DNA from: a virus
Taxonomy: Duplodnaviria; Heunggongvirae; Uroviricota; Caudoviricetes
DNA length: 17,095 nucleotides
Strand: one strand, 5' to 3'
IMG/VR virus record: IMGVR_UViG_2778261641_000010
Coordinates: 1-17,095 of that record
In this document: one piece after another, positions 1-17,095 of the stretch
How positions within the stretch are numbered: position 1 is the stretch's first letter
Layout: the number at the start of each line of letters is the position of its first letter
The notes under the pieces: model-generated
What the model was told of the DNA's origin: nothing
The model's database searches: none
Seen by the model: only the letters and a program-made list of their open reading frames with translations
Position numbers and translations under genes: made by a program

Positions 1-17
1 TTGCAGGAAACGGTAAA
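1..17. other. Inner end of the partner (left) crossover site / terminal inverted repeat of the invertible segment, truncated by the window edge
   Basis: Bases 1..17 are the reverse complement of 3027..3043 (1 mismatch). Bases 1..9 (ttgcaggaa) would be the last 9 bp of an inverted 26-bp site whose remainder lies left of the window. Confidence 0.5.
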
Positions 18-954
18 TCAGGCTTCTGGCGCATTACAGAAAAACCAGAACGGCGCAGATATTCCAGGAAAAGATACCTTCACCAAAAATATTGGTGCCT
101 GCCGCGCATACAGCCCATGGCTGAATATTGGTGGCGATAGTCAGGTCTGGACAACCGCGCAATTTATTTCGTGGCTGGAGAGTCAGGGAGCATTTAACCA
201 TCCTTACTGGATGTGCAAAGGCTCATGGGCTTATGCAAATAATAAGGTCATTACAGATACAGGTTGCGGAAATATTTGTCTTGCAGGTGCTGTGGTGGAA
301 GTTATTGGCACTCGCGGCGCAATGACCATACGCGTTACTACGCCGAGCACGTCCAGCGGTGGCGGAATTACTAACGCTCAATTCACTTATATTAATCATG
401 GTGATGCTTATGCTCCTGGCTGGCGACGAGACTACAACACGAAAAACCAGCAGCCTGCATTTGCTTTAGGGCAAACAGGACGCAGGGTCGCAAATGATAA
501 AGCTGTTGGCTGGAACTGGAATAGCGGCGTTTATGATGCAGATATCAGTGGCGCATCGACATTAATCCTCCACTTTAATATGAATGCGGGGAGTTGCCCT
601 GCTGTACAGTTCCGCGTGAATTATAAAAACGGCGGTATCTTTTATCGTTCAGCGCGTGATGGTTATGGCTTTGAAGCTAACTGGTCAGAGTTTTACACCA
701 CAACCCGCAAACCCTCTGCGGGGGATGTTGGTGCATATACGCAGGCAGAGTGTAACTCAAGGTTTATTACAGGTATTCGCCTGGGCGGTCTGTCATCTGT
801 TCAGACATGGAATGGTCCCGGCTGGTCTGACAGGTCAGGTTATGTCGTTACAGGTTCAGTTAACGGAAACCGTGATGAATTAATTGATACAACACAGGCA
901 AGGCCAATTCAGTATTGCATTAATGGAACGTGGTATAACGCGGGGAGTATTTAA
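1..954 (+). CDS. Alternative tail-fibre C-terminal (variable) domain cassette, 5'-truncated by the window edge; currently not joined to the stf constant part
   Basis: Open frame from base 1 to the stop at 952-954. The first 17 nt (ttgcaggaaacggtaaa, encoding LQETVN) are the reverse complement of 3027..3043 inside stf with one mismatch, then the sequence diverges. The C-terminus ...[14 protein letters not shown] matches the stf C-terminus ...FRPIQKYINGTWYN. It is followed 2 nt later by a tfa-type gene. No start codon or RBS of its own, as expected for a silent cassette. Confidence 0.7.
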
Positions 955-956
955 TT

Positions 957-1490
957 ATGATGCACTTAAAAAACATTACTGCTGGCAATCCTAAAACGAA
1001 AGAACAATACCAGCTAACAAAGCAATTTAACATCAAATGGCTTTATTCAGATGATGGAAAAAACTGGTATGAGGAACAAAAGAACTTTCAGCCTGATACG
1101 TTGAAAATGGTCTATGACCGTAACGGCGTTATTATTTGTATTGAAAAGGATGTTTCAGCAATTAATCCAGAAGGCGCAAGCGTCGTTGAGGTTCCTGATA
1201 TTACAGCAAATCGCCGGGCTGATATTTCGGGTAAATGGATGTTCAAAGATGGCGTAGTGGTAAAGCGAACTTATACCGAGGAAGAGCAGAGGCAGCAGGC
1301 GGAAAATGAAAAGCAAAGCCTGCTACAGCTCGTCAGGGATAAAACCCAGCTATGGGACTCACAGCTACGGCTGGGCATCATTTCCGACGAGAATAAACAA
1401 AAATTAACCGAGTGGATGCTCTATGCGCAGAAAGTCGAATCTACAGACACTTCCAGCCTGCCAGTAACGTTTCCCGAACAACCTGAATGA
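957..1490 (+). CDS. tfa: Tail fibre assembly protein (Tfa/Mu U-like chaperone), partner of the silent fibre-tip cassette
   Basis: 177-aa ORF. The N-terminal ~110 aa ([22 protein letters not shown]...[19 protein letters not shown]) are near-identical to the minus-strand Tfa at 1519..2046, and the C-terminal ~60 aa are divergent. It starts 2 nt after the upstream fibre-tip stop. Confidence 0.8.
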
Positions 1491-1493
1491 GAC

Positions 1494-1520
1494 AAGGCCC
1501 GATAGCGGGCCTTAATTTTT
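1494..1520 (+). terminator. Hairpin terminator between the two convergent tfa genes
   Basis: aaggcccg-atag-cgggcctt forms an 8-bp GC-rich stem with a 4-nt loop, followed on the plus strand by aatttttatt and preceded by an A-rich run on the minus strand. It lies exactly between the convergent stops at 1490 and 1519. Confidence 0.55.
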
Positions 1521-2046
1521 ATTCAGGCTTTTGTGGCCATTCAGGATTTGCCGTATCCACACGGCTGACCAGAACACTGTAGCGTTCCCATGACTCCAGT
1601 CGTGCGCGTTCCTCATCCGTCGCCATATTCAGCCTGACGGCGCGTTCCAGTGGCTGAATAATGCTTTCTGCTTCGGAAAGTAACGCGGCCTTTTGTGATT
1701 CTGCCTGTTGTTGCTGCTCATCTGTCGTATAAATCCGTTTAACTACAGTTCCGTCCTTAAACATCCACTTCCCTGAATCATCGGCGCGACGATTGGCTGT
1801 TATATCTGGAATCTCAACGACACTAAAGCCTTCGGGATTAAGCGTTGAGGCATCTCTGGTGATAGCGACAATAATATTATTTTCATCGTAAACAATCTTT
1901 ATTGTGTCTGGCTGAAAGTTCTTCACTTCCTCATACCAGTTTTTTCCGTCTTCGGACCATAACCAGATAACATCAAAATTCTTTGTTAGCTGATATTGCT
2001 CTTTTGTTTTTGGATTACCTGACTTAATGTTCTTTAAATGCTGCAT
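1519..2046 (-). CDS. tfa: Tail fibre assembly protein (Tfa) for the currently expressed fibre tip
   Basis: 175-aa ORF. ATG at 2046 lies 3 nt after the stf stop, with AGGTG upstream. The C-terminal motif ...[27 protein letters not shown] is typical of lambda Tfa / Mu U-family chaperones. Confidence 0.85.
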
Positions 2047-2049
2047 AAC

Positions 2050-5000: not shown

Positions 5001-5058
5001 AGTTCTGTACCGGTTTTCCTGTTCCGTCTTTCAGTACACCTGAAATTTTTACTGCCAT
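2050..5058 (-). CDS. stf: Side tail fibre protein Stf: lambda-like N-terminal constant part, long Ala/Ser/Thr-rich repetitive shaft, invertible C-terminal tip
   Basis: 1002 aa from the ATG at 5058 (MAVKISGVLKDGTGKPVQNCTIQLKA..., which I recognise as the lambda Stf N-terminus), with a GGAG RBS 5 nt upstream. The GTG two codons further upstream abuts the RBS and is rejected. Phage tail-fibre repeat motifs (DASTTxKGxVQLSSATNSTSE) occur twice. A gix-like site lies in frame at 3034..3059. Confidence 0.85.
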   Translation of the reverse strand: MAVKISGVLKDGTGKPVQNCTIQLKAKRNSTTVVVNTLASENPDEAGRYSMDVEYGQYSVILLVEGFPPSHAGTITVYEDSRPGTLNDFLGAMTEDDARPEALRRFELMVEEVARNASVVAQNTAAAKKSASDASTSAREAATHATDAAGSARAASTSAGQAATSAQSASSSAGTASTKATEASKSAAAAESSKSAAATSAGAAKTSETNAAASQKSAATSASAATTKASEAATSAWDAAASKEAAKSSETNASSSASSAASSATAAGNSAKAAKTSETNARSSETAAGQSASAAAGSKTAAASSASAASTSAGQASASATAAGKSAESAASSASTATTKAGEATEQATAAARSASAAKTSETNAKVSETRAESSKTAAASSASSAASSASSASASKDEATRQASAAKGSATTASTKATEAAGSATAAAQSKSTAESAATRAETAAKRAEDIASAVALEDASTTKKGVVQLSSATNSTSETQAATPKAVKAAYDLANGKYTAQDASTTRKGLVQLSSATNSTSETLAATSKAVKVVMDETNKKAPLNSPALTGTPTTPTAPKGTNNTQIASTAFVMAAIAALVDSSPDALNTLNELAAALGNDPNFATTMTNALAGKQPKDATLTALAGLATAADRFPYFTGNDVASLATLTKVGRDILAKSTVAAVIEYLGLQETVNKAGNAVQKTGDTLSGGLTFENDSILAWIRNTDWAKIGFKNDADSDTDSYMWFETGDNGNEYFKWRSKQSTTTKDLMNLKWDALYVLVNAIVNGEVISKSANGLRIAYGNYGFFIRNDGSNTYFMLTNSGDNMGTYNGLRPLWINNATGAVSMGRGLNVSGETLSDRFAINSSNGMWIQMRDNNAIFGKNIVNTDSAQALLRQNHADRKFMIGGLGNKQFGIYMINNSRTANGTDGQAYMDNNGNWLCGAQIIPGNYGNFDSRYVRDVRLGTRVVQLMARGGRYEKAGHTITGLRIIGEVDGDDEAIFRPIQKYINGTWYNVAQV
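3034..3059. other. gix/cix/pix-family 26-bp recombination (crossover) site for a Gin/Pin-type serine invertase, embedded in stf
   Basis: ttcctgtaaaccgaggtattcgataa: imperfect dyad around a central GA, and from memory a ~23/26 match to Mu gixL (TTCCTGTAAACCGAGGTTTTGGATAA). It sits exactly where the two fibre-tip sequences stop being alike. It encodes ...IEYLGLQE... in the stf frame. Confidence 0.7.
3437..3700 (-). repeat. Tandem direct repeat (2 x 132 bp, imperfect) inside stf encoding duplicated phage tail-fibre repeat motif
   Basis: The block cagacgtgctgttggt(g/t)gc(g/a)ctact(g/a)agctg appears at ~3489..3520 and ~3621..3652, 132 bp (44 codons) apart. Encoded peptides are DASTTKKGVVQLSSATNSTSETQAATPKAV and DASTTRKGLVQLSSATNSTSETLAATSKAV. 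Confidence 0.7.
3700..4730 (-). repeat. Low-complexity Ala/Ser/Thr/Lys-rich periodic region of stf (fibre shaft) with recurring AAKTSETNA-type units
   Basis: The translation shows AAKTSETNAAAS / AAKSSETNASSS / AAKTSETNARSS / AAKTSETNAKVS units. All three frames of both strands are open over much of this stretch because of the GC-rich repetitive composition. Confidence 0.6.
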
Positions 5059-5067
5059 ATTCACTCC

Positions 5068-5096
5068 ACAAAAAAGCCCGCCTGAACCGGCGGGCT
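5068..5096 (-). terminator. Rho-independent terminator downstream of lom, immediately upstream of the stf RBS
   Basis: Minus strand AGCCCGCC-GGTTCA-GGCGGGCT (8-bp GC stem) followed by TTTTTTGTGG, running straight into the stf GGAG RBS and ATG. Confidence 0.7.
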
Positions 5097-5122
5097 GTCA
5101 TAACACTGTGTTACCTGGCTAA

Positions 5123-5722
5123 TCAGAATTTATAACCGACACCCACGATGAAACCGTCAGTGCGCCAGTCGCCACTGCCGGAACCTTCATAAGCAAGGTC
5201 AATGGCCACGGATTCGGTCGGGTTAAACTGCACGCCAGCCCCCCACGCCAGAGACGTGTTGCTGTGGCGACCGCCATCACTCCCGGTCAGCACATCGTGC
5301 GTTTTCCCCTTGTTGTCAGTTACGCGGAGATAATCCCCGGAGAACGTCGAAACACGGCTGTAAGCCACACCCGCCATCGCATAAGCACTGAACCATTCAT
5401 TCACGCGTACAGACGGCCCCGCCATCACGCTGAACCAGCGGTTACGCACTGAATCTTCATGCCAGCGGGTATCGCTGTAACGGGTAATCTGGCGATTCTT
5501 GTCTCCTGCATAGCTGAATGACGTCACCAGCCCCAGCGTGTCCGTAAATTCATAACGGTATTTCACGTTAATGCCCTTCAGGTCATCACTGCCTGGCATA
5601 TCAGTATGGGTCTGAAGATACCCGGCGCTTAGTGTGGACTGATGCTCTGCTGCGCTCGCTGGCGTACCAGCGGCAACCAGCCAGACTACTGCGGACAGAA
5701 TAACAGCACATAATTTACGCAT
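5123..5722 (-). CDS. lom: Lom outer-membrane protein (Ail/Lom/PagC/OmpX-family beta-barrel); lysogenic-conversion moron
   Basis: 199 aa. N-terminal signal peptide [29 protein letters not shown]-terminal ...[10 protein letters not shown] beta-barrel signature, and strong resemblance to lambda Lom as I recall it ([10 protein letters not shown]...[11 protein letters not shown]...[34 protein letters not shown]). RBS AGAGGT 5 nt before the ATG. Confidence 0.9.
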
Positions 5723-5743
5723 AATTACCTCTCGCTTTTCTGC

Positions 5744-5770
5744 AATAAAAAAGGCGCCATTTCTGGCGCC
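5744..5770 (-). terminator. Rho-independent terminator after J, upstream of lom
   Basis: Minus strand GGCGCCA-GAAA-TGGCGCC (7-bp stem, GNRA-type loop) followed by TTTTTTATT, about 20 nt after the J stop. Confidence 0.7.
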
Positions 5771-5789
5771 CGTATCTGGGTTATAAAAT

Positions 5790-8700
5790 TCAGCTAATCG
5801 TGATGCCTGCAGTGGCTTTCTTCATCACAACAACCAGCAAATCGCTGATACTTGCTGTGGGATACCAGTCATTTACCCACCATGCTGATACAGAAAACTC
5901 CAGTGTCATTACACCACTGCCTGCAGGCATATCAATAACACCCGTGTATATCAGCGTATTATCCAGAGCCGTTCGGTTATAAATTTCAGCCCCGTTTTTC
6001 TTCACTATCAGGCGGCATGACGAATAAGTATCGCTATTCTCCCGCTCATGTCTGGCACCGCTGAAAGCCACCGCTGGAATAACAATTTGCCGGTCAAACG
6101 GCTGATCGTCATAAACCCTGACGGTAATGGTCCCTGATGGCCACCGCTCCGGAGCACGGGAGTCCCGGGGGAAAGCTTTGCCCACTGTTTTAACGAGATC
6201 GCCTTCAATCTGGTTCGCGGACAGTTTTCCCAGAACCCGACAGTTCTCGTTAATCGTGACGTTGTTGAGCGTCCCGGAGTTCGCATTCACGTTACCGCTG
6301 ATATCGGCATTTTTCGCCGTCAGCCGCCCGTCCGGTGTCAGGGAAAATGCCGGAGGATTACCGCCGCTGGTAATGGTCGGAGCCGTCAGGCGTTTCAGGA
6401 ACACGTCGTTCATGAATATCTGATCGCCCTGACCAACAAACATTGGTCTTGTGTTGCCATTAGACGGATCAATAAACGCGATACGGTTAGCGGCAACCAG
6501 GAACTGGCTCAGTTTGCCTTCCTCCGTGTCCTCCATGCTGAGGCCAATACCCGCGACATAATGTTTGCCGTCTTTGGTCTGCTCAATTTTGACGCCCCAC
6601 ATGGCATTCCACTTATCGTTGGCGTCCTTCCACTCTTTCGAAAACTGCTCCAGTTTGCTGGCGTTATCTTCCGTCAGCTCAAAGTTTTCCAGTAGCTCCT
6701 TGCCGAGATGCGTTTTATTGATCAACCCTTTATAAAAATTCAGATAACCTTCCGCATCATCGCTCGCCCGACCGACGGCCTCCACAAATGCCGATTTACC
6801 AACGGTATTCACGCTGCGGATATAAAAGTAATAATCATAACCCGGCTTAATATTGCTACTGGCAGCTATCCAGTACAGCGCCGTGCCAAGATAGCGGGCT
6901 GTGGTTTCAACCTGCCTGATATCAGCAATCCGCTTTTCCGAGAACCAGAACTCAAACTGCACCGTCGGGTCATATACAGCCAGTTTCGGGACCGCTGTTA
7001 TCTGAAAATACCCTGGTATCAGTTCAATAGTGACAGGCGCTGCAGGTGCGGCAATCCGGAACGATACCGATGCCGGATCGCCCTGCTGCCCCCACGCATT
7101 TGCCGCCCGGACCGTCAGCGTGTAACGCCCCAGCGCCAGCTGCCTGAAGCGGTATGTGGTTTCCGTCGTCCGGACCGTGCTGACCAGCCGCTCACTGCCG
7201 TCATCCGCTGTTACGGTCAGACGGAGCAGGAAGCTCACGCCCTTCACCACCTTCGGCGTGTCCCAGCGGGCCAGTACCTGATATTCCCCGCTGTCTGCGG
7301 AGACTTCGGCGGTCAGATGCTGCACTGCTGGCGGCGTGACACCATTCACCGTGCCGCTCTGGTCGCCGTCAAAGTGCGCCCCGTTATCCACGATGGCTTC
7401 TTTTTCCGGTACATGCTGCACGGCGGTGATGGCATACGTGCCGTCGTCGTTCTCACGGATACTCACGCAGCGGAACAGGCGCTGGCGCAGCGTCGGCAGC
7501 TTCAGCCCCCATACGCTGTATTCAGCAACGCCGTCAGGAACACGGCTCACTTTCACCTTCACGCCGTCGGCGACGGACTGAACCTCCACGCTGACCGGAT
7601 TGCCACTTCCGTCAACCAGGCTTATCAGCGTGGTACCGGAGGATGGCAGCGTGATTTCACGGTCGAGCGTCAGCGTCCGGGTCTGGCTGTTCACCGCCAG
7701 CACACGACCACCGTTGCTGATACCGGCATAGTCATCATCGCAGATTTCAATGACATCGCCCGGTACATGGCGAAGCCCTTCAGCACCCACGCTGAAGTCC
7801 ACGGTCTGCGTTTCCAGCAGCTCCGTTTTAATCAGCCACAGCCCGGCGCGGTGTGCCTGCCCCCGGCTGGTACAGCCAAAGGCATCCATCTTCGTGACGT
7901 TACGACCGTAACGGGCAATGGCCTGCGTGTCCTCCACAAGCTCTGTTGCCGTCTCCCAGCCATTGTCCGGGTCAATCCAGTTCACCTCAACGGCATTATG
8001 GCGGTCCTTCAGGGCGCTGAAGCTGTAGCGGAACGGCGCGCCATCATCCGGCATCACCACATTACTGCGGTTATAGGTCCACACCTTATCCGACTGTCGG
8101 TCCTGCACGAACGTCAGCGTCTGCCCGTTCCATACCGGCATACAGCGCATCGCCGAGCAGAAATCACTGAGCACATCCCACGCCTTGCGCTGTGTGGTCA
8201 GGTACGCATTACAGGTGATGCGCGGCTCCGTGCCGCCAAAGCCGTCCGGCACTGACTGGTCGCAGTACTGGCCGATGACATACAGCGCCCATTTGTCCAC
8301 ATCCGCCGCACCAAGACGTTTCCCCATGCCGTAGCGCGGGTGGGTCAGCATATCCCACAGACACCAGGCCATGTTGTTGCTGTATGCTGGTTTTAACGTT
8401 CCGTCCCAGATACCGCTGTATTGTCGCGTCTGCGGGTTATAGTTCGACGGCACCTGCAGAATGCGCCCGCGAAGATGATAATTACGGCTCACCTGCTGGC
8501 TGCCGAACTGCTCCGAGTCCACCTGTACGCCGACCAGTGCCGTGTTCGGGTAGCACTGTTTCACATCGATGATCTCGGTGTATGACGACCAGAGCGTTTT
8601 GTTCTGCAGCTGGTCTGTGGTGCTGTCCGGCGTCATCCTGCGCATCCGGATATTGAACGGGCGCGGCGGCAGGTTATCCACCACCACCGAGGCCAGATAC

Positions 8701-9185
8701 TGCGAGGTGGTTTTGCCCTTAATGGTGATGTCTTTTTCCGTCACCCAGCCACCGTTACGCTGTATCTGAACCAGCAGGCGGACTTCCGACGGATTCCTGT
8801 CTCCCTTTGAGGTGGTTTCCACCAGTGCCTGTACACCGAAGGTAAAGCGCAGACGGTCGATGTTTGCCGACGTAATGGTACGGGTGATCGGCGTGTCATA
8901 TTTCACTTCCGTACCCAGCACCGTCTCGGAGCCGGAGGATTCAAACCCCTCCGGCGGTGTCTGCTCCTGCTCACCTGCCCGGAACACCACCGTGACACCG
9001 GCGATGTTGGTATTCCCTTCACTGTCCAGCACCGGCGTACTGTTCAGCAGCACGCTTTTTAATCCATCCACCGGACCTTCTATCGGCCCTTCGCTGATGG
9101 CATCGATCACACTCAGCAACTGCGTGGACTTCAGGTTATCCTTCGCTTCGCGCGGGGTATGCCCCTTACTGCTGCCTTTACCCAT
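5790..9185 (-). CDS. J: Tail tip / host specificity protein J (central tail fibre)
   Basis: 1131 aa. The N-terminus [45 protein letters not shown]... is the lambda J N-terminus as I recall it. The size and the position after I fit, and a GGAG RBS precedes the ATG. Confidence 0.9.
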
Positions 9186-9195
9186 TCCTCACGCT

Positions 9196-9227
9196 CCATA
9201 AACGACAAAACCGCCCGGAGGCGGTTT
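9196..9227 (-). terminator. Terminator-like hairpin between I and J
   Basis: Minus strand AAACCGCC-TCCG-GGCGGTTT followed by TGTCGTTTAT (interrupted U-tract), in the 60-nt I-J gap. Confidence 0.45.
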
Positions 9228-9245
9228 CACATAAAACATTTTGCA

Positions 9246-9893
9246 TCAGCGACCAATCACCACAACCTGACCACCGTCCCCTTCGTCTGCCGTGCTGATC
9301 TCCTGAGAAACCACCCGCGACCCCACGCGCATTTCACCGTACAGAACGGGCAGAACATTGCCCTGGGCAACCATGTTATCCAGTGAGGAGAAATAGGTGT
9401 TCTGTTTGCCGTTATCTGTACTTGCTGCCGTGGGCGTCCTGGCTTTCGGTGCCAGCATCTGCGCCACTCCGCCCAGGATCATACTGGCCCCTGCCGCATA
9501 CATGCCCGATAAAGCCGCGGCACCCAGCCAGCCTGCGGGGTTCCACCACGCCACCGCAAACAGCGCCGCACCCAGCACCGCCTGAAAAACACCGCCACTT
9601 TTGGCTCCCGCCAGACGCGGCACGATGTGGATCACTGCACCATTTGCCAGCGGCTCATTAAGACGGGCAGATAATTCGGTTTCACCTGCATCACGCCCGG
9701 CAATGCGCACCTGATACCAGCCGTCATTCAGTTTCTGACGAAACGCCGGGAGCTGTGTGGACAGCGCCCGGATGGCTTCAGCCCCCGTTTTCACACGAAG
9801 GTCGATGCGGCGGCCAAATCGTTGCAAATCCCCGTAAAGGCAGATGCGTGCCATGCCCGGTGACGCCAGAGGGAGTGTGTGCGTCGCTGCCAT
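9246..9893 (-). CDS. I: Tail assembly protein I (tail tip assembly, ubiquitin-like N-terminal region family)
   Basis: 215-aa ORF whose C-terminus is ...NTYFSSLDNMVAQGNVLPVLYGEMRVGSRVVSQEISTADEGDGGQVVVIGR. It lies between K and J as in lambda. Start uncertain: ATG at 9893 (GAGAGAGG ~11 nt upstream) or ATG at 9854; both overlap the 3' end of K. Confidence 0.8.
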   Translation of the reverse strand: MAATHTLPLASPGMARICLYGDLQRFGRRIDLRVKTGAEAIRALSTQLPAFRQKLNDGWYQVRIAGRDAGETELSARLNEPLANGAVIHIVPRLAGAKSGGVFQAVLGAALFAVAWWNPAGWLGAAALSGMYAAGASMILGGVAQMLAPKARTPTAASTDNGKQNTYFSSLDNMVAQGNVLPVLYGEMRVGSRVVSQEISTADEGDGGQVVVIGR

Positions 9894-10534
9894 TTGTCGG
9901 TATACCTCTCTCGTTTGCTCAGTTGTTCAGGAATATGGTGCAACAGCTCGCCGTCGCCGCAGTAAATGGCGGCATGATTCGGCACCGATGAACCAAAACA
10001 GCACAGCAGTACATCGCCCGGCTGCGCCGCTGACAACGGCACCTGATACAGCCCCGTTGCCTCCAGATTATCCAGATAGAGATTCTGGCCGTTACGCCAC
10101 CAGTCATCCTCACGATGAAAATCCGGCATCTCAATCCCCGCCAGATGGTAAGCGTCCCGGAACAGCGTGTAACAGTCCGTCACCCCGTGCTCAAAGCGTC
10201 GCCCGGTGAGATGCGGCACACAGCGGAACTTATGAATCGCCCCCCGGCAGACCAGCCACCAAGGCAAATCGCTCTGCACCTGCAGCCGCCTGTCAGCCTC
10301 ACTCAGCCAGGGCAGACCACCGGGGTGGCTGTGGACCAGCGCCACAATCTCACCCTGCATCTCTGCCCGCAGCCAGTCCTCCGGCGACATCCGGAAATAC
10401 GCCTCCGGCTCACCGGAGATATTCACGCAGGGAAAATATCTTTCCCCTTCCGGCGTTCTCACCACGAAGCCGCACGACTCCGCTGGCGCACATCGCCGGG
10501 CGTGCGCCAGAATCGCTGATTCTGTCTGTGTCAT
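9791..10534 (-). CDS. K: Tail assembly protein K with JAMM/MPN metalloprotease and NlpC/P60 domains
   Basis: 247 aa from the ATG at 10534 (MTQTESAILAHARR...), 4 nt after the L stop. Intact JAMM motif HSHPGGLPWLSEAD (H-x-H-x7-S-x2-D), then a Cys/His-containing NlpC/P60-like region (GVTDCYTLF...NHAAIY...HH). The 14 codons upstream in the ORF track lie inside L and are rejected. Confidence 0.85.
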   Translation of the reverse strand: MTQTESAILAHARRCAPAESCGFVVRTPEGERYFPCVNISGEPEAYFRMSPEDWLRAEMQGEIVALVHSHPGGLPWLSEADRRLQVQSDLPWWLVCRGAIHKFRCVPHLTGRRFEHGVTDCYTLFRDAYHLAGIEMPDFHREDDWWRNGQNLYLDNLEATGLYQVPLSAAQPGDVLLCCFGSSVPNHAAIYCGDGELLHHIPEQLSKRERYTDKWQRRTHSLWRHRAWHASAFTGICNDLAAASTFV

Positions 10535-10538
10535 GGGA

Positions 10539-11237
10539 TTACTGCGAAAGTTTGTTAATGGAAAGGAAGCCGCCAAAGTTGCCGACGTTATTGCGAAACT
10601 TACAGCCGCTCAGGCATTTGCTGCATTTATCCTTCGTGATATCGGACGTCGGCTGGTCATATTCATCCGCGACAGCCGGACCATGATAACCGCACTCATC
10701 ACCGCGATAGGTCCAGGTGCAGGTGTTGGCCAGCATGATGCGCCCCGGAAAAACAGCACCATCCGTTTCCGTCGGTGTGGAGAGCACAAAGGAGGCACTG
10801 ACCGCACTCAGTTCGCTGCACTGCTCAATGCGCCAGCGGCTGATCACCTCCTGCTCAGGATCGGCATCGCTGTTTCCGGTGACGAAGTTCACCGCATCCA
10901 GAAAACGGGCGTAAACCTTACGCCTGACCACCGTTCCGCCGACCAGACTCTGCAAATCTTCCACCATCCCGGTGACCATGCCGTGCAGATTAGAGACTTT
11001 CAGAGTTGGCCTGGCGCTGGCTCCTTTACCGTTCATCTCAAATCCGCTCCCCTGAATGGGATACGGCTGATACTGTCGCCCCTGCCAGGTGACCGGCTCA
11101 CCTTTTTCGTTCTGCTCATTACAGAAAAAATAACGCTCTCCGCCGACTTCTGTCAGATCGACTTCCCAGAGCACGACCAGCGCGGATTGCTCCGCTTTTG
11201 TACACTCATTCAGTGTTTCCTGCTGTATATCCTGCAT
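10539..11237 (-). CDS. L: Minor tail protein L
   Basis: 232 aa, lambda L-like length and position; contains a Cys cluster (C-x2-C ... CSKCLSGC). Its start overlaps the M stop. Confidence 0.88.
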   Translation of the reverse strand: MQDIQQETLNECTKAEQSALVVLWEVDLTEVGGERYFFCNEQNEKGEPVTWQGRQYQPYPIQGSGFEMNGKGASARPTLKVSNLHGMVTGMVEDLQSLVGGTVVRRKVYARFLDAVNFVTGNSDADPEQEVISRWRIEQCSELSAVSASFVLSTPTETDGAVFPGRIMLANTCTWTYRGDECGYHGPAVADEYDQPTSDITKDKCSKCLSGCKFRNNVGNFGGFLSINKLSQ

Positions 11238-11578
11238 CAGTGAGTGACCTCTTCAAAGGTACAGTTAAAATCGGTATACATGGCATTATCCGAAATGCTC
11301 CACTCCCTGCAGACAACCCGGACAGTCCTGTTGTGTTTTGGCGGACGCCACAAAAAAGCACGAATCCCGGCATGACGGGATAAAAAACTGTCCAGCGCGG
11401 CACGGGAATATTCATCTGTGACACGAAATACCGGTTTAAACGTTTTCAGATCCGCATTCAGACCACCAGCCCGTCGCTGTTCATATCCGTCACCAAACTT
11501 TACCGTAATAACTGATGGCTTTCGTGTCGTCTCCATCCCCTCACGGGGGATCCAGTTAAAAACTTCAGGCTCAGGCAC
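11237..11578 (-). CDS. M: Minor tail protein M
   Basis: Conserved FGDGYEQR and WRPP motifs as in lambda M (FGDGYSQR...). Preferred start is the GTG at 11578, which has AGGAGGA 7 nt upstream and gives ~113 aa; the alternative is the ATG at 11593. It overlaps the tape-measure stop (11571-11573) by a few nt. Confidence 0.78.
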   Translation of the reverse strand: MPEPEVFNWIPREGMETTRKPSVITVKFGDGYEQRRAGGLNADLKTFKPVFRVTDEYSRAALDSFLSRHAGIRAFLWRPPKHNRTVRVVCREWSISDNAMYTDFNCTFEEVTH

Positions 11579-14500
11579 TGTACAATCCTCCATCCCGACG
11601 CGATGACTGCATAATTGACACAACCCTGCTGTCGATCAGATCCACCAGCCCCCTGGCTGACTGCGTATCTATCTCGCCATTGCTCCCTTTATTCTGAATA
11701 CTGATGTGATACACGGGAGAATAAACAAATCCACCGCCACCATTCACATTGCCAATGGCTCTGACTCCAAGAGAGCCGTCCGCTGCCCGAGTCAGTGGCA
11801 TGATAGCTTCAGGCCCGGCCTCGCCCATCAGCCCGGCACCTTTCGCAAAAGCAAAATACGTCGGGGTATCCACAATGGTGTTACTGTAAGCACTCAAATT
11901 TGCCGATGTATAAACACCACCTTTTGCGTTTGCCACTGCACCGGAAAGCCAGTCGCCGACTGTACCAAGCCATCCTCCGGCACCGGACATGCTTTTGGAA
12001 AGTGACTTCAGCCCGTTAACGATGGCAGCGTTCATCAGAATTTTTGAAACTTCCTGGAGAATTGAACTCCCCCAGTTTCTCCAGTCCACAACATTTCCGG
12101 CCAGTGCATCGGAAATATTTGATACCAGCCCGTCCATAGTGGAAATGACAGCATCTGCCGCCTGCGAAGCATAATCAGTGGCACTGTCTGCCCAGTTCGT
12201 CAGCCCCTCCTGGAGTCCGGCATTCCAGTTACTGCGTAAAGCATCAGCCTTTGCATAATAATCCTGCTGATCGCTGAGACGCTCTTCCAGATATTTTTCA
12301 TTCAGCGATTTTTCCTGTTTCCACAGGGCTTCTTCAATTTCTCCGGCCTGATACTGTCTCAGCAGCTCGTTATTTTTCTGCTCAAACGCCTGCCGGATAC
12401 TCCACATTTCCTGGAGTCGTTCACGCATCCGTGAGCCTTCACCATATCCCAGCAACTGCGCGTCGTCAGATGCCCGGGCACTGGCATTACTGTCCGCCAG
12501 ACTGCTTTCATACGCGGCAAGCTGCTCACGAATCTTTTTCTGGTCGATGAGTGCCGCATTCTGTAAAAGCGTTTTTTTCTGCGCTTCTGACAGGGTTGAT
12601 AATTCGCCCTGACTGACCTGATATTTCATCTTAGCCAGTTCAGTATTCTGCCCTGCCAGTGCTATTTGTTCTTTTTGCTGTTTAATTAGCCGTTTATAAA
12701 TATCTTCTGTTTTTTCCGCTTCGGTCTTTTTATGCGCTTTGGGTTTATTTGCCTGGTTATTTCGCCAGGCATCCAGTGAGTTATTGATATAATTCTGTCT
12801 GGCTGTCTGATACGCCTCTCCCACAAAGCCGAGATCATCCGCAGCATAACCCAGTCGGGCACGCTCACGGGCTTCCCCCTTCAGGCGGGACAGAGCCAGT
12901 TCGCGCTCGCTGTTATTCAGTGCGGTCTGCTGTTTATCATCCAGGGTTGCCTGTGGTAGCCGTAATGGTGCATTCACCAGCCCCTGTCGCTGCTGAAGTA
13001 ATTCATTACCAAGCCCGAGAAGACGATTAAACTCGGTATGCTGCCCATTCATGATCAACAGGGACTGATACGCTTTGTTTTGTTCCGCCGCCTGTTGACG
13101 GATCAACGCCACCCGTCGCTCCTCCAGCCCGGCAAGCACATCCTGAATAGATTGCGCTTTGCCCTGCATTTGAGTGAGGCGAGACTGTTCAACTGCCAGT
13201 TGATTTGTTGCTTCTGCAAGCCCTTCTGTGACAGTTTTCACCGACGTCATATGGTTAATCATAAAACCGTTATCGGTTGTCCAGCCCGGGTTTGCCAGCA
13301 CATACTGATAGCCAGCAATTTTTTCCTGTAAGGATTTAATCTTACTTTTCTGCTCGTCAATTAACCTGTTTTGCTCATCAAGTGCCTGCCGCGTCTTTTC
13401 CTCATTATCTGACGCTTCAGGAAGCGACATTGCCGACGTTTTCTGGCGAATTTCGTCGATTGTTGCGGCATACTGGCGTGCAGATTCTCTGGCCTGCTCC
13501 TGATTCTGATACATCGTGTACCAGGCCGTCGCCCCCAGCATGACGAGTCCCGGCACACCACCAACCAACCCCAGCGCACCACTTAACAGACGACTCCCCA
13601 CTGACGTGACAGTATTCAGCGTTGTCTGTGCCGCTGTTCTGGCCGCAATATTACGGGTAAGTGACGCCTGGGCAGCTGTCAGCTTCGCTTCTGCTGCGGC
13701 CTGCCTTTCGGTACCGCGAGCAGCAACAACCGCCTGTTGCGCACGATAAACCGCCGCACGCGCCCTGGCGGTTGCTATCTGTGTCCCCCGAAGTTGCGCT
13801 TCAGCAAGAGCCACTTCGTTTCTGGCTGCAGTAATTAATCCGGCAGTTGCAGATCCAGCAGACGACGCCATATTGCCAAAATATCGGGCTACCCCGACGG
13901 CAACCAGTGCGCCAGCTGCAGCAGCCACGGTATCAATATTGTCTGCAACACCATTCAACACCCCGGTGAGTGTCTTTGTCACTCCGCTTGCCTCGTTCGC
14001 ACCACCAACCCAGGCCATAAAGGCGTTTTCAACTTTGGTTGCAGAGGATGAAACAGTATCAGGCATTGCTGCATATTCATCACGCAACGCCCCAAGCTGA
14101 CTAATCAGTGCAGGAACAACCTTATCGGCGGTCAGTTTTCCGTTATCCGCCATGGCTTTCAGATCCTTACGGGCAACACCCATTCCCGCAGCCAGCGCAC
14201 GAATAACACGATCGCCGTTCTCATTCACAGAGTTAAATTCTTCACCGCGCAGCACTCCCTGCGCCAGTGCCTGACTGAACTGCGTGATCACCGAACTGGC
14301 TTCTGCTGTACTGGCACCGGATAATTTCAGGCCCGTGGAGATCGCCTCGGTGACTTTCAGTACCTCCTCAGAACTGTAGCCATACTCCCGCATGGAAGCT
14401 GCAGAGCGGGCAAAAAGGCTGGCGTTATCAGAAAACGCCGTTCCCGTTCTCTGGCTGATTGCCATTAATTCACGTTGTGATACCTGAAAATCATCACTGG

Positions 14501-14816
14501 ACTGTGAAGCCTGCTTCAGGCGGGCATTTACTGAATTCCACTCATCGGCGAGAGAAATAAGATGACCGGTAGCAAAAGCTCCGGCAAATGCCCCCGCCAT
14601 ATTCAGTGCCGAAGATTTAGCTGTATTTATCTGATCCGTCACTTCTGCCAGTGCACGCCGCATTTCACGGGATGCAGCAGCGGACTGCCGGCCTCCGTTC
14701 TGCATGGTACGGTAGTAATCCTGCCCCATACGCGAAGCCCGGGAGATCTCTGACTGGAATGACCGGGAATTTGCCGAGATTTTAATAATCAGTTCACGTA
14801 ATGTCGCCACACTCAT
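11571..14816 (-). CDS. Tail tape measure protein
   Basis: 1081 aa, largely alpha-helical/coiled-coil-like composition (Ala/Gln/Leu/Glu-rich), with Gly-rich hydrophobic stretches. It lies between G/GT and M. GGAGA precedes the start (ATG at 14816 or the in-frame GTG two codons later). Confidence 0.9.
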   Translation of the reverse strand: MSVATLRELIIKISANSRSFQSEISRASRMGQDYYRTMQNGGRQSAAASREMRRALAEVTDQINTAKSSALNMAGAFAGAFATGHLISLADEWNSVNARLKQASQSSDDFQVSQRELMAISQRTGTAFSDNASLFARSAASMREYGYSSEEVLKVTEAISTGLKLSGASTAEASSVITQFSQALAQGVLRGEEFNSVNENGDRVIRALAAGMGVARKDLKAMADNGKLTADKVVPALISQLGALRDEYAAMPDTVSSSATKVENAFMAWVGGANEASGVTKTLTGVLNGVADNIDTVAAAAGALVAVGVARYFGNMASSAGSATAGLITAARNEVALAEAQLRGTQIATARARAAVYRAQQAVVAARGTERQAAAEAKLTAAQASLTRNIAARTAAQTTLNTVTSVGSRLLSGALGLVGGVPGLVMLGATAWYTMYQNQEQARESARQYAATIDEIRQKTSAMSLPEASDNEEKTRQALDEQNRLIDEQKSKIKSLQEKIAGYQYVLANPGWTTDNGFMINHMTSVKTVTEGLAEATNQLAVEQSRLTQMQGKAQSIQDVLAGLEERRVALIRQQAAEQNKAYQSLLIMNGQHTEFNRLLGLGNELLQQRQGLVNAPLRLPQATLDDKQQTALNNSERELALSRLKGEARERARLGYAADDLGFVGEAYQTARQNYINNSLDAWRNNQANKPKAHKKTEAEKTEDIYKRLIKQQKEQIALAGQNTELAKMKYQVSQGELSTLSEAQKKTLLQNAALIDQKKIREQLAAYESSLADSNASARASDDAQLLGYGEGSRMRERLQEMWSIRQAFEQKNNELLRQYQAGEIEEALWKQEKSLNEKYLEERLSDQQDYYAKADALRSNWNAGLQEGLTNWADSATDYASQAADAVISTMDGLVSNISDALAGNVVDWRNWGSSILQEVSKILMNAAIVNGLKSLSKSMSGAGGWLGTVGDWLSGAVANAKGGVYTSANLSAYSNTIVDTPTYFAFAKGAGLMGEAGPEAIMPLTRAADGSLGVRAIGNVNGGGGFVYSPVYHISIQNKGSNGEIDTQSARGLVDLIDSRVVSIMQSSRRDGGLYSA

Positions 14817-14826
14817 TCTCCGGACG

Positions 14827-14847
14827 AAAAAAACCGCCGAAGCGGTT
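14827..14847 (-). terminator. Short terminator/attenuator-like hairpin between GT and the tape measure gene
   Basis: Minus strand AACCGC-TTCG-GCGGTT (5-6 bp stem, UUCG-type loop) followed by TTTTTTT, then the GGAGA RBS of the tape measure gene. Confidence 0.4.
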
Positions 14848-14855
14848 ATGTTGAC

Positions 14856-15544
14856 TCACTGAGACACTATTAAAAGCGCGTTTTCCAGTCCGGCAAATGG
14901 ATCTGAGACGCCTTCTGTCTGCTCTTGTTCCCACTGAAGAAGCGCATCATTCAGTGGGACTTTGACACCCTGCGCACCGTAAACCGCAGAAACTATCTGG
15001 GCAGCCCGGATATCAGCCCGCTCGTCACCCAGCGGGCTGAACCTGTCAAATTCTGCCCACATCATGATTTCTGATGCGGACATTTCCCGGCGTAACTCTG
15101 ACAATGTGCGCCCCATCCTGAGCGCCAGCATCATCAGAAAACGCATCCCCGGAAGCTCTACTTTTTTTTAACCTCGCCGGCATCACTGATCAGTTCCAGA
15201 GACTGCCGAAGAAGCCGCGCATGCACCGGGCCATACACGGCAATCACCTGTTCACGATCATCCTCTGAAAATACAGGTTGCAGTCCGGTATCACACAGAA
15301 CATCAATGAACAGTTCAACATCTGCCTCCAGATTTCGGCGGGCGCGCTCCGCAACGGATAACGGTGTCTCATCATCTTTTGCTTTAACGATCTCCTGCCA
15401 GCGCAACCAGGCTTCTGCAGAAGGTTCCCGTAATACAACCGTTGCCCCTTCCCATTCAGGCACATCAACAGTTTTATGGCGAAACCCCGACATCGTTGCC
15501 AGTGCCAGATTGCGGATATTTTTAGTCATCACATCTATCCTCAT
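14856..15544 (-). CDS. Tail assembly chaperone GT fusion produced by programmed -1 ribosomal frameshift
   Basis: The ORF at 14856..15146 has codon phase exactly -1 relative to G. The G frame ends ...GTT AAA AAA AAG TAG, so a slip on A_AAA_AAG (15161..15167) continues K-V-E-L-P-G-M-R-F-L... to the stop at 14856. The downstream ORF has no plausible independent RBS. Confidence 0.65.
15158..15544 (-). CDS. Tail assembly chaperone G (0-frame product)
   Basis: 128 aa; the ATG at 15544 overlaps the major-tail stop (TAATG). An alternative start is the ATG at 15529, with GAGGA 8 nt upstream. Position immediately before the tape measure gene and the acidic C-terminal half fit a G-type chaperone. Confidence 0.75.
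   Translation of the reverse strand: MRIDVMTKNIRNLALATMSGFRHKTVDVPEWEGATVVLREPSAEAWLRWQEIVKAKDDETPLSVAERARRNLEADVELFIDVLCDTGLQPVFSEDDREQVIAVYGPVHARLLRQSLELISDAGEVKKK
15161..15167 (-). promoter_or_regulatory. -1 programmed ribosomal frameshift slippery heptamer A_AAA_AAG, directly followed by the 0-frame stop TAG
   Basis: Run of 8 A then G on the minus strand (plus strand c-tttttttt-a at 15161..15170); A_AAA_AAG is a classic slippery sequence (e.g. dnaX). Confidence 0.65.
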
Positions 15545-16248
15545 TAACTGACGGTAACAGTGCAGGAAGTGGAGGTCACCTTGTTAACAGGGCTTGCTGA
15601 ATCAGAAATCTCGCAGGTATACGCACCGGCATCACCTGATGCTGCTGATGCCTTACTGAATGTTGCCGCCGTCTGTCCGGAAACAGGAGAACTACCTTTC
15701 TTCCAGACATAAGAATAAGGCGGCACACCACCGGCAGCCTCAACCACCATTTCGAGTTTCGCTCCGGCAGAAACCTGCAGCGTGCTGTTTAAATCGACCT
15801 TCACTTTCAGCGGCTCTGTCGTCAGCACAGGTTTACCTTTCAGGCGCAGGGAAAACGTTGCAGCCACAACACCATTAGTTCCTGCAGACCAGGTATGCTG
15901 ACGCACCTCTGCCATAAAGGTAAATCCGTTGCCTGACGGAAAAATAACTTTAAAGCCATACGTGGTGTCATTGTCATAGGCACTGCGCAACGCGTTCTGG
16001 GCAGCATTGAGGTAAAAGTTGCCTGACATGGAAATCTCTGACGCGGCACCAAGGCCGTTAATATTTTCCTGCTCAACAGAACACAGCGTGGTGACATCAA
16101 TATCCTGCTTTTGTCCTGCGGTAAACTGCACCTCTTTGATTGTACAGCTCAGGCCAAGATAGCTGGCAGAATCCAGGGTTTCTGCTGTTACCGGTGCAGA
16201 CGAAATCATAATTTTCGTCAGTTGCGAACGCTCAAAATTAGAGGACAT
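15544..16248 (-). CDS. Major tail protein with C-terminal Ig-like (Big_2-type) domain
   Basis: 234 aa from the ATG at 16248 (MSSNFERS...), with AGGAGA 5 nt upstream. The ORF-track 5' extension runs through a terminator hairpin and is rejected. The C-terminal ~80 aa (...VSAGAKLEMVVEAAGGVPPYSYVWKKGSSPVSGQTAATFSKASAASGDAGAYTCEISDSASPVNKVTSTSCTVTVS) resemble an Ig-like decoration domain. It sits just upstream of G/GT. Confidence 0.8.
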   Translation of the reverse strand: MSSNFERSQLTKIMISSAPVTAETLDSASYLGLSCTIKEVQFTAGQKQDIDVTTLCSVEQENINGLGAASEISMSGNFYLNAAQNALRSAYDNDTTYGFKVIFPSGNGFTFMAEVRQHTWSAGTNGVVAATFSLRLKGKPVLTTEPLKVKVDLNSTLQVSAGAKLEMVVEAAGGVPPYSYVWKKGSSPVSGQTAATFSKASAASGDAGAYTCEISDSASPVNKVTSTSCTVTVS

Positions 16249-16260
16249 ACTCGTCTCCTG

Positions 16261-16287
16261 AAAATAAAAAACCCGCCAGCGGCGGGT
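16261..16287 (-). terminator. Rho-independent terminator-like hairpin in the leader of the major tail gene
   Basis: Minus strand ACCCGCC-GCT-GGCGGGT (7-bp GC stem) followed by TTTTTATTTT, then AGGAGA and the ATG of the major tail gene. Confidence 0.6.
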
Positions 16288-16307
16288 GGGTAAAATCATT
16301 AACGACC

Positions 16308-16652
16308 TCAGGCTATTACCTGAAATTCAAGCGTGGATCTGCTCAGACGGGAATCAGGATCATAACCCTGAGTTTTAGAAATAACGGAAGGTGCAAGTTG
16401 CCTTACCGCATCAAGCGCCTGCTCACGGATATCATCTGCGTCATCAGGTACTGTTGCCCAGACATCGATCTGCACGGTAATTCTGGATTCAGCCTGACCA
16501 TCAAGCACATCAGACGCAGTGTCAGACACCACAGAAAATACCAGCCATGGCGGAGATACCGCAGGCTTTCCCTCCGTCAGCGGGACCACATAAGGATAAA
16601 CCTGTCCTCCGGCCAGTTGAGACAGCAGGGAATACAGTGTGGTCTCTCTCAT
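16308..16652 (-). CDS. Tail completion / tail terminator-type protein (DUF3168-like; lambda U position)
   Basis: 114 aa; its ATG overlaps the stop of the upstream gene (ATGA). The call rests on size and position immediately before the major tail gene. Confidence 0.65.
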   Translation of the reverse strand: MRETTLYSLLSQLAGGQVYPYVVPLTEGKPAVSPPWLVFSVVSDTASDVLDGQAESRITVQIDVWATVPDDADDIREQALDAVRQLAPSVISKTQGYDPDSRLSRSTLEFQVIA

Positions 16653-17095
16653 TTACTTAAGACCTCATCAATAGCCTGATTCATTCGCTGTATGGCAATC
16701 TGTGCTGCCAGTTCCTCTGTCGTATCGAAAGCTGGGCGAATGAACGGATGCGCGGGCATGTTTATCGTTCCCAGCTCCACAAAGCGCCAGTAAAACGCAT
16801 TTCGGGGATCACTGGCTTTCATGCTGTTATCACTGTTTCCGGTTCGCAGGTTCCGTCCACGAATGTGGACACCCGAGATAATTTCCCCCCGACGCTTTGA
16901 ACGCTGAGTGAGAACAACCACATTTTTCTTCAGTTTCCCGGTTCGCTCCGGCGCACGTTCAACAACTGCATCCCGCATAACTTCAGCACCGGCACGGGTG
17001 GCATCGCGCAGTACCTTATTGTTTTCTGCCCTGCTGAGCGTCTCCAGATCCCGTGCAATATCCGCCAGACCTGAAAAATCAAGACTGAAATCCAT
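16649..17095 (-). CDS. HK97 gp10-family neck/tail-completion protein (lambda Z position); possibly 5'-truncated by the window edge
   Basis: 148 codons in the window, starting with an ATG at the very last bases (17093..17095), so completeness cannot be judged. Motifs ...FYWRFVELGT...PAHPFIRPAFD... resemble the HK97 gp10 family as I recall it. Confidence 0.6.
   Translation of the reverse strand: MDFSLDFSGLADIARDLETLSRAENNKVLRDATRAGAEVMRDAVVERAPERTGKLKKNVVVLTQRSKRRGEIISGVHIRGRNLRTGNSDNSMKASDPRNAFYWRFVELGTINMPAHPFIRPAFDTTEELAAQIAIQRMNQAIDEVLSK

Follow-up and report, generated by a model that had tools for sequence, protein, structure and literature searches.

The tip attachment protein J encoded in the 17,095-nt stretch of DNA analysed here (the window) is a mosaic, in which a lambda-type scaffold comprising residues 1-982 carries an exchanged, Ig-like receptor-binding domain at residues 983-1131. 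This domain belongs to the clade that includes 1A2, VT1-Sakai, 2G7b and PhiR47_1. The 1A2 domain, 93-94% identical to it, is functional in ΔlamB cells and depends on OmpC, which makes OmpC the most likely receptor, and we consider that the J protein of the window probably uses it. An earlier note on this DNA had suggested that the phage may use a receptor other than LamB, and the comparison with the LamB-independent and OmpC-requiring 1A2 type makes this likely. The features on which the argument draws are collected in Table 1.

Table 1. Features of the window, with coordinates, strand and basis of assignment
Feature	Position	Strand	Basis or remark
Gene J, tip attachment / central tail fibre protein	5790..9185	-	1131 aa + stop; ORF list, translation
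Lambda-like J body, aa 1-981	6243..9185	-	~95% aa identity to lambda J; Pfam
Junction block DISG...NENC, aa 961-982	6240..6305	-	final stretch common to all J variants compared
Receptor-binding domain, aa 983-1131, non-lambda allele	5793..6239	-	1A2 / VT1-Sakai / 2G7b / PhiR47_1 clade
Core of receptor-binding domain, aa 1033-1107, old sub-allele	5865..6089	-	dS contrast, differing residues
Terminator-like hairpin + T-run between J stop and lom	5752..5771	-	consensus scan
lom (Ail/Lom outer-membrane protein), downstream of J	5123..5722	-	Pfam Ail_Lom, E=1e-122
stf, side tail fibre gene, 1004 aa	2050..5064	-	Pfam phage_tail_N, Phage_fiber_2, Gp34_trimer; second host-range determinant
gix-like 26-bp crossover site inside stf, TTATCGAATACCTCGGTTTACAGGAA	3034..3059	-	direct reading
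tfa chaperone	1519..2046	-	Caudo_TAP match
tfa', second chaperone	957..1490	+	Caudo_TAP match
Silent alternative fibre tip, 317-codon ORF	1..954	+	gp37_C match
Remaining lambda/HK97-type tail module	9246..17095	-	Pfam, PHROG

The product of gene J was recognised as a lambda-type tip attachment protein by its complete series of Pfam domains, running from the hub to the C-terminal Ig-like domain (Phage-tail_3, FNIII-A_GpJ, Ig_J, Ig_J_second, Phage_Tail_Tip and Ig_GpJ_C), each of which scored above its curated cut-off. The body of the protein comprises hub domains, two FNIII/Ig domains, a helical shaft and a beta-prism fibre, with the domain names taken from the lambda structure paper. BLASTP aligned the protein with lambda J (NC_001416, 1132 aa) over its full length at 88% identity, with one single-residue gap. 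When identity was counted in blocks of 50 residues, it stayed at 0.90-1.00 up to residue 950, except for 0.80 at residues 801-850, and then fell to 0.72, 0.46, 0.42 and 0.32. Residues 1-980 were 94.9% identical to lambda J, in line with the view of the earlier note that the N-terminal majority looks lambda-like, and residues 981-1131 were 42.4% identical. The same break was seen in the DNA of the gene, where identity to lambda dropped from 0.85-0.99 to 0.53-0.57 past about nt 2940, that is, in the final ~450 nt. The further claim that the last ~150 residues do not resemble lambda J also held: the 151-residue C-terminal string on which it was based matches the ORF translation exactly, and the pairwise alignment with lambda J gave 41-42% identity in this part against 95% before the break, clearly short of the more than 90% over the C-terminal 150 residues expected of lambda's own LamB-binding domain. 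The region had been drawn at 5790-6300, which takes in about residues 962-1131 and the stop codon, but true divergence from lambda is limited to residues 983-1131 (5793-6239). Three nested or opposite-strand ORFs that overlap this region (5800-5982 on the plus strand, 6008-6286 on the minus strand and 6127-6423 on the plus strand) were set aside as mechanical ORFs without supporting evidence.

That lambdoid phages exchange the final ~150 residues of J as a module is well established. In an alignment of 11 J proteins from five receptor-domain clades, the junction block at residues 961-982 was almost unvarying, and to judge from this alignment it is the probable recombination joint of J. The near invariance of the block accounts for the fusion point used by Brödel et al. 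(Nature 2024, PMC11338833), whose J chimeras were joined at lambda residue 964. Andrews and Fields placed the boundary of natural J diversity at residue 982.

The exchanged part was assigned to its family and clade by profile, structure and sequence comparisons. The Pfam family Ig_GpJ_C ('Tip attachment protein J, C-terminal receptor binding domain') matched residues 1001-1131 with E=6.9e-37. The closest solved structure to the J tail was 9wca/9wcb, 'A8 gpJ 713' (E=3e-63), and the lambda J structures 8xcj and 8iyk came next, with E about 1e-40 (2e-40). A megablast search of phage genomes with the 511-nt J region returned 112 records, among which lambda was absent. The best phage record was PhiR47_1, with 98.0% DNA identity, and matches at 90-93% were found in vB_EcoS-640R1, VT1-Sakai, PPompW prophages (O157 strains), Lambda_2G7b and many long-tailed Stx phages. 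At the protein level, the J tail of PhiR47_1 was 98% identical both over 171 residues and over the divergent 149 residues. The tails of 2G7b and VT1-Sakai each reached 94% over the 171 residues, in the case of VT1-Sakai without a gap, and 93% over the divergent part. All other tails compared were much further away: phage 21 with 69% over 171 residues and 62% over the divergent 149, A8 / 2H10 with 66% and 58%, BP-4795 with 65% and 59%, 434B and mEp460 with 49% and 39%, and lambda with 47% and 41%. The close identity without indels across the domain thus places the window J in the clade of 1A2, VT1-Sakai and 2G7b.

The nearest relative, PhiR47_1 (PV340566), is a temperate phage induced from the ECOR collection, and it shares with the window the order J-lom-stf in addition to the receptor-binding domain. 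Its side fibre differs, being 2.36 kb long and followed by genes annotated as hypothetical proteins only; unlike the window, its annotation holds neither an alternative tip nor a second chaperone. A search of the literature for the receptors of PhiR47_1 and Lambda_2G7b gave none: the data in the SNIPE papers concern ManYZ and SNIPE only, and Andrews and Fields say of 2G7b and 2H10 merely that they have 'unique host ranges'.

The receptor assignment goes through 1A2. Brödel et al. (PMC11338833) fused natural J C-termini to lambda J, and two of the resulting chimeras, A8 and 1A2, both recognise OmpC and not LamB. The 1A2 gene is recoded in the supplement of that paper, which is why exact DNA words of the window were absent from it. 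We took the 1A2 sequence from the machine-read PDF, which contains many errors and indels, and aligned it to protein by a frameshift-tolerant dynamic programme. It decoded to the VT1-Sakai tail: 161 of the 171 residues were identical, 6 codons were unreadable and 4 residues mismatched, probably through misread letters in the PDF text. VT1-Sakai and the window differ at 11 positions, and in 10 of these 1A2 agrees with VT1-Sakai. Since 1A2 decodes to the VT1-Sakai tail, the domain of the window is about 93-94% identical to one that has been characterised experimentally. 1A2 and the window J agree in having a J scaffold of the lambda type, a junction that follows DISG...ENC and a domain of one and the same clade, the former being an engineered, recoded fusion and the latter a natural prophage gene.

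In the published experiments, 1A2 delivered DNA into ΔlamB ΔompC MG1655 only when a suitable OmpC was supplied on a plasmid (PMC11338833). By our own reading of the source data, with an allele scored as working if at least 75% of the cells were GFP-positive at the top MOI, 20 of the 23 OmpC alleles worked, the EDL933 type included, with 76-99% delivery. The alleles that failed were G1, G2 and G40, and the figures for G1 are those of the OmpC-MG1655 panel. Delivery by 1A2 reached a mere 5% at MOI 50 in wild-type MG1655, and about 2% in ΔlamB ΔompC cells with K-12 OmpC (PMC11338833). 1A2 thus discriminates between OmpC alleles and cannot use that of K-12, which makes the range of OmpC alleles that the window J would recognise unpredictable.

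OmpC use extends to a second, more distant group of J domains. The A8 tail in the PDB has the same sequence as that of Lambda_2H10, and entry 9wcb shows A8 gpJ713 in complex with an OmpC trimer. The tail of phi330, an Stx2a siphophage, is two residues off the A8 tail, and this natural phage needs OmpC on BW25113: it fails on the ΔompC mutant, and complementation restores infection. The A8 / 2H10 / phi330 domain has the fold family and the junction of the window domain and binds OmpC, but in addition to the low identity of the divergent part its loop lengths differ (one 4-residue and one 5-residue indel). It also differs from 1A2, in that A8 uses K-12 OmpC and 1A2 does not. By analogy with A8 gpJ-OmpC and with lambda J-LamB, the trimeric J tip of the window would most likely dock with its distal loops on trimeric OmpC rather than on LamB. 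The cryo-EM structure paper on lambda J describes a trimeric fibre with a tip that opens upon receptor binding, and docking of the window J on OmpC would likewise cause the tail tip to open.

The genes around J make up a complete tail module of the lambda/HK97 type. The gene order in the window (tape measure, M, L, K, I, J, lom, stf) has J in its lambda-type operon position, according to Pfam and PHROG. The tail module upstream comprises a tail completion protein, a tail terminator protein, the major tail protein, two G/T-like chaperones, the tape measure and M, L, K and I, and a related prophage of E. coli TUM1880 has the identical tail gene order. Neither the window annotation nor Pfam revealed a separate gene for a receptor-binding protein in the interval from J to lom, which leaves the tip of J itself as the receptor-binding element of the tail tip. 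The hairpin found between the two genes has an 8-bp stem with 6 G-C pairs, followed by TTTTT; a rho-independent terminator is annotated at the corresponding place in mEp460. An Rfam scan of the window returned nothing.

Although the window domain is close to that of 1A2, it is not the same allele. The two differ, with VT1-Sakai standing for 1A2, at 11 residues (1045, 1048, 1050, 1051, 1053, 1062, 1081, 1090, 1092, 1103 and 1106), all of them confined to residues 1045-1106, inside a core of 75 residues. Compared to 2G7b and VT1-Sakai, dS was 0.64-0.85 in the core and 0-0.08, about ten times less, in the flanking parts of the domain. Such a high dS between near-identical flanks indicates that the core is an old allele that was recombined in. 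Its protein identity is 85%, and dN/dS was 0.11-0.15 in the same comparisons, which shows that the core is under purifying selection. In the alignment, the core overlaps segments that vary or bear indels between clades, and these segments are presumably the receptor-contact loops, comparable to L1-L4 of lambda. The lambda structure paper describes L1-L4 as distal contact loops, and their residue ranges are absent from its main text. A single-sequence AlphaFold2 model of the 171-residue tail had a mean pLDDT of 50.6 and was unusable for placing the loops.

Similarity in the receptor-binding domain of J is an unsafe guide to the receptor, and this has to be weighed against the OmpC assignment. 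The lambda J domain (PDB 8xcj, 8xck, 8iyk) belongs to the same Ig-like family and has four distal loops; lambda J and the window J have the N-terminal 980 residues in common, while their receptor-binding domains are 41% identical, and that of lambda binds LamB. Further natural exchanges of this domain, again joined at this junction, are found in the J proteins of phage 21 (LamB) and phage 434 (OmpC). The phage 21 domain is 81% identical to that of A8, which uses OmpC, and 45% identical to that of lambda, which uses LamB, and its receptor is not the one that the nearer relative would suggest: we had considered phage 21 as an OmpC user and ruled this out, as LamB is reported as its native receptor. 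One mutation in J lets phage 21 gain the use of OmpC, and gains of both OmpC and OmpF use by mutation have been described. The case of phage 21 weakens any inference from similarity alone, and since a domain only 45% identical to lambda's can still serve a LamB user, divergence from lambda is by itself no proof of a new receptor. The window domain might accordingly still bind LamB, through contact residues unlike those of lambda, and phage 21 is indeed the second-closest clade to it (62%). However, the far closer 1A2 domain (93%) is active in ΔlamB cells and depends on OmpC, and 1A2 hardly enters wild-type MG1655, although this strain has LamB. Retention of LamB binding in the manner of phage 21 is accordingly hard to credit, and LamB is a very unlikely receptor of the window J.

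A receptor other than OmpC and LamB, or a markedly different range of OmpC alleles, is also unlikely, if conceivable from the sequence of the core. Through the 11 core substitutions, the PhiR47_1-type sub-allele might have come to recognise a different porin (such as OmpF), a different outer-membrane protein or markedly different OmpC alleles. That all the differences from 1A2 are grouped in residues 1045-1106, within an old and separately evolving segment, would fit such a change, as would the fact that one to four substitutions switch receptor use in phage 21 and lambda. PhiR47_1 and PhiR46_1 were propagated on ECOR13, and PhiR5_1 and PhiR55_1, of the same clade, on E. coli C. The low dN/dS of the core, on the other hand, argues that function was kept rather than retargeted, its protein sequence is still largely conserved, and no data point to a different receptor; we therefore regard the retargeting as doubtful. 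If the core of the window and PhiR47_1 did confer a different porin specificity, either for another outer-membrane protein or for distinct OmpC alleles such as those of the K-12 type, which we do not expect, the sub-allele would be a natural 'loop cassette', that is, a sub-domain exchange within the receptor-binding domain of J. It could also be asked whether J is part of a decaying prophage remnant with a tip that has no current function, since lambdoid prophages of E. coli are often defective and the J of VT1-Sakai is annotated as truncated by mutation. Here, however, the ORF of 1131 residues is intact, all J domains are there, the entire tail module is intact, and the receptor-binding domain is under strong purifying selection. 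In addition, PhiR47_1, with its 98% identical tail, is an isolated phage for which growth on ECOR13 is on record. Decay is thus extremely improbable, and we retain OmpC as the probable receptor.

The earlier note had also proposed that the phage would have two independent host-range determinants, and as far as can be read from the sequence this is what the window encodes: the J tip, and an stf gene accompanied by two opposed sets of tip and chaperone. The site TTATCGAATACCTCGGTTTACAGGAA at 3034-3059, which closely resembles gix of phage Mu, separates the constant from the variable part of the fibre within stf and forms an inverted repeat with positions 1-41 of the window. Its partner is cut by the start of the window, where its last 9 nt are visible at positions 1-9, so that one complete gix-like site and part of a second are seen. 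This layout is that of a putative invertible segment of the Din type (Gin/Cin/Pin). No serine invertase gene was found within the 17,095-nt window. It may lie just outside, because cassettes 94-96% identical to positions 1-3100 of the window adjoin a recombinase gene in Mu-like and P2-like prophages. In the Mu-like prophage, a gene for a recombinase family protein is located at the other end of the cassette, together with com and mom, and in the P2-like prophage such a gene lies ~70 bp past the point that matches the window start. With two alternative tips in a cassette of the invertible type, the side fibre Stf would make a separate, reversible first contact with the host. The pair of J and Stf is in itself the normal Ur-lambda design and no special feature (PMC11338833).

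The J tip of the window is an already known and widespread allele, and its close relative 1A2 has a published receptor, OmpC. We searched complete E. coli genomes with the 453 domain-specific nucleotides (cut-offs of at least 80% identity and at least 80% coverage) and found a domain of the window type in 3350 of 5426 genomes (about 62%), with a median of two copies in the genomes that carry it. The sub-allele of the window, at 95% identity or more, accounted for 357 matching records, and the 1A2-like sub-allele, at 90-95%, for 2446. The equivalent part of lambda J was present in 96 of the 5426 genomes at 80% coverage or more (98 with any match), always with at least 99% identity, and the top-listed carriers were laboratory strains and DE3 lysogens. 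Measured by these counts, the tip of the window is the norm among natural J proteins and the LamB-binding tip of lambda an oddity. For annotation, the window can be described as part of a prophage with a probable OmpC-type tail tip of the 1A2/VT1-Sakai clade and a putatively switchable side fibre. Its sub-allele is a ready natural variant with which the loop residues that set OmpC-allele specificity could be mapped, and the comparison as a whole recalls that the LamB tip of lambda is a rare exception among natural J proteins.

Within J, the tail-tip protein, the core of the receptor-binding domain (residues 1033-1107, window 5865-6089) and its flanks were compared with the closely related domains of 2G7b and VT1-Sakai. 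The core gave a dS of 0.64-0.85, versus 0-0.08 for the flanks, and a dN/dS of 0.11-0.15. From these alignments, the receptor-binding domain itself looks like a recombination mosaic of core and flanks. In the helical-shaft region, residues 801-850 (window ~6636-6785) share 80% identity with lambda J, versus 90-96% for the adjacent blocks; judged by sequence identity, this is a minor second mosaic patch in an otherwise lambda-like body. In the OmpC-binding sister clade, the J tail of phage phi330 (PV189401, 17482-20610) differs by 2 residues from the engineered A8/Lambda_2H10 tail. Phi330 is a natural Stx2a phage that depends on OmpC, and through this near-identity the A8 clade is linked with an OmpC-using phage found in nature.

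A 1-kb stretch around J and lom holds three terminator-like sites, after J, after lom and inside J, versus 0.6 expected from shuffles.

Positions of the crossover-type site and of the hairpins following J and lom
Feature	Position	Strand	Location
gix-like 26-bp site	3034-3059		inside stf
Terminator-like hairpin with T-run	5752-5771	-	directly 3' of J
Terminator-like hairpin with T-run	5075-5096	-	directly 3' of lom

None of the complete E. coli genomes or phage records searched matched the entire window; the best database matches covered ~80% of it (3203-17095) at 95-96% identity, and matches to the side-fibre cassette were located elsewhere. In the set of complete genomes searched, this tail module and this side-fibre cassette appear to be an uncommon combination. 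The related prophage of E. coli TUM1880, which has the same tail gene order, carries an HK97-type head module and adjoins yodB/zinT.

Window 1-5064 is laid out like a Din-type invertible segment, in the order stf constant part, tip/tfa, tfa'/tip'. The partner crossover site is split by the window start, with positions 1-9 falling in it, and the invertase gene expected beside it was not found within the window. One might speculate that a contig or window edge placed right at an inverted crossover site reflects an assembly break caused by inversion.

The ~3-kb tip/chaperone cassette (window 1-3100) is 94-96% identical to cassettes of a Mu-like prophage (L010, 3501-6563), where it adjoins a recombinase gene, com and mom, and of a P2-like prophage (L011, 4001-7119). 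The side fibre of the window is of siphovirus type and both of these prophages are contractile-tailed; the same putatively switchable fibre tips are therefore common to long-tailed and contractile-tailed prophages.
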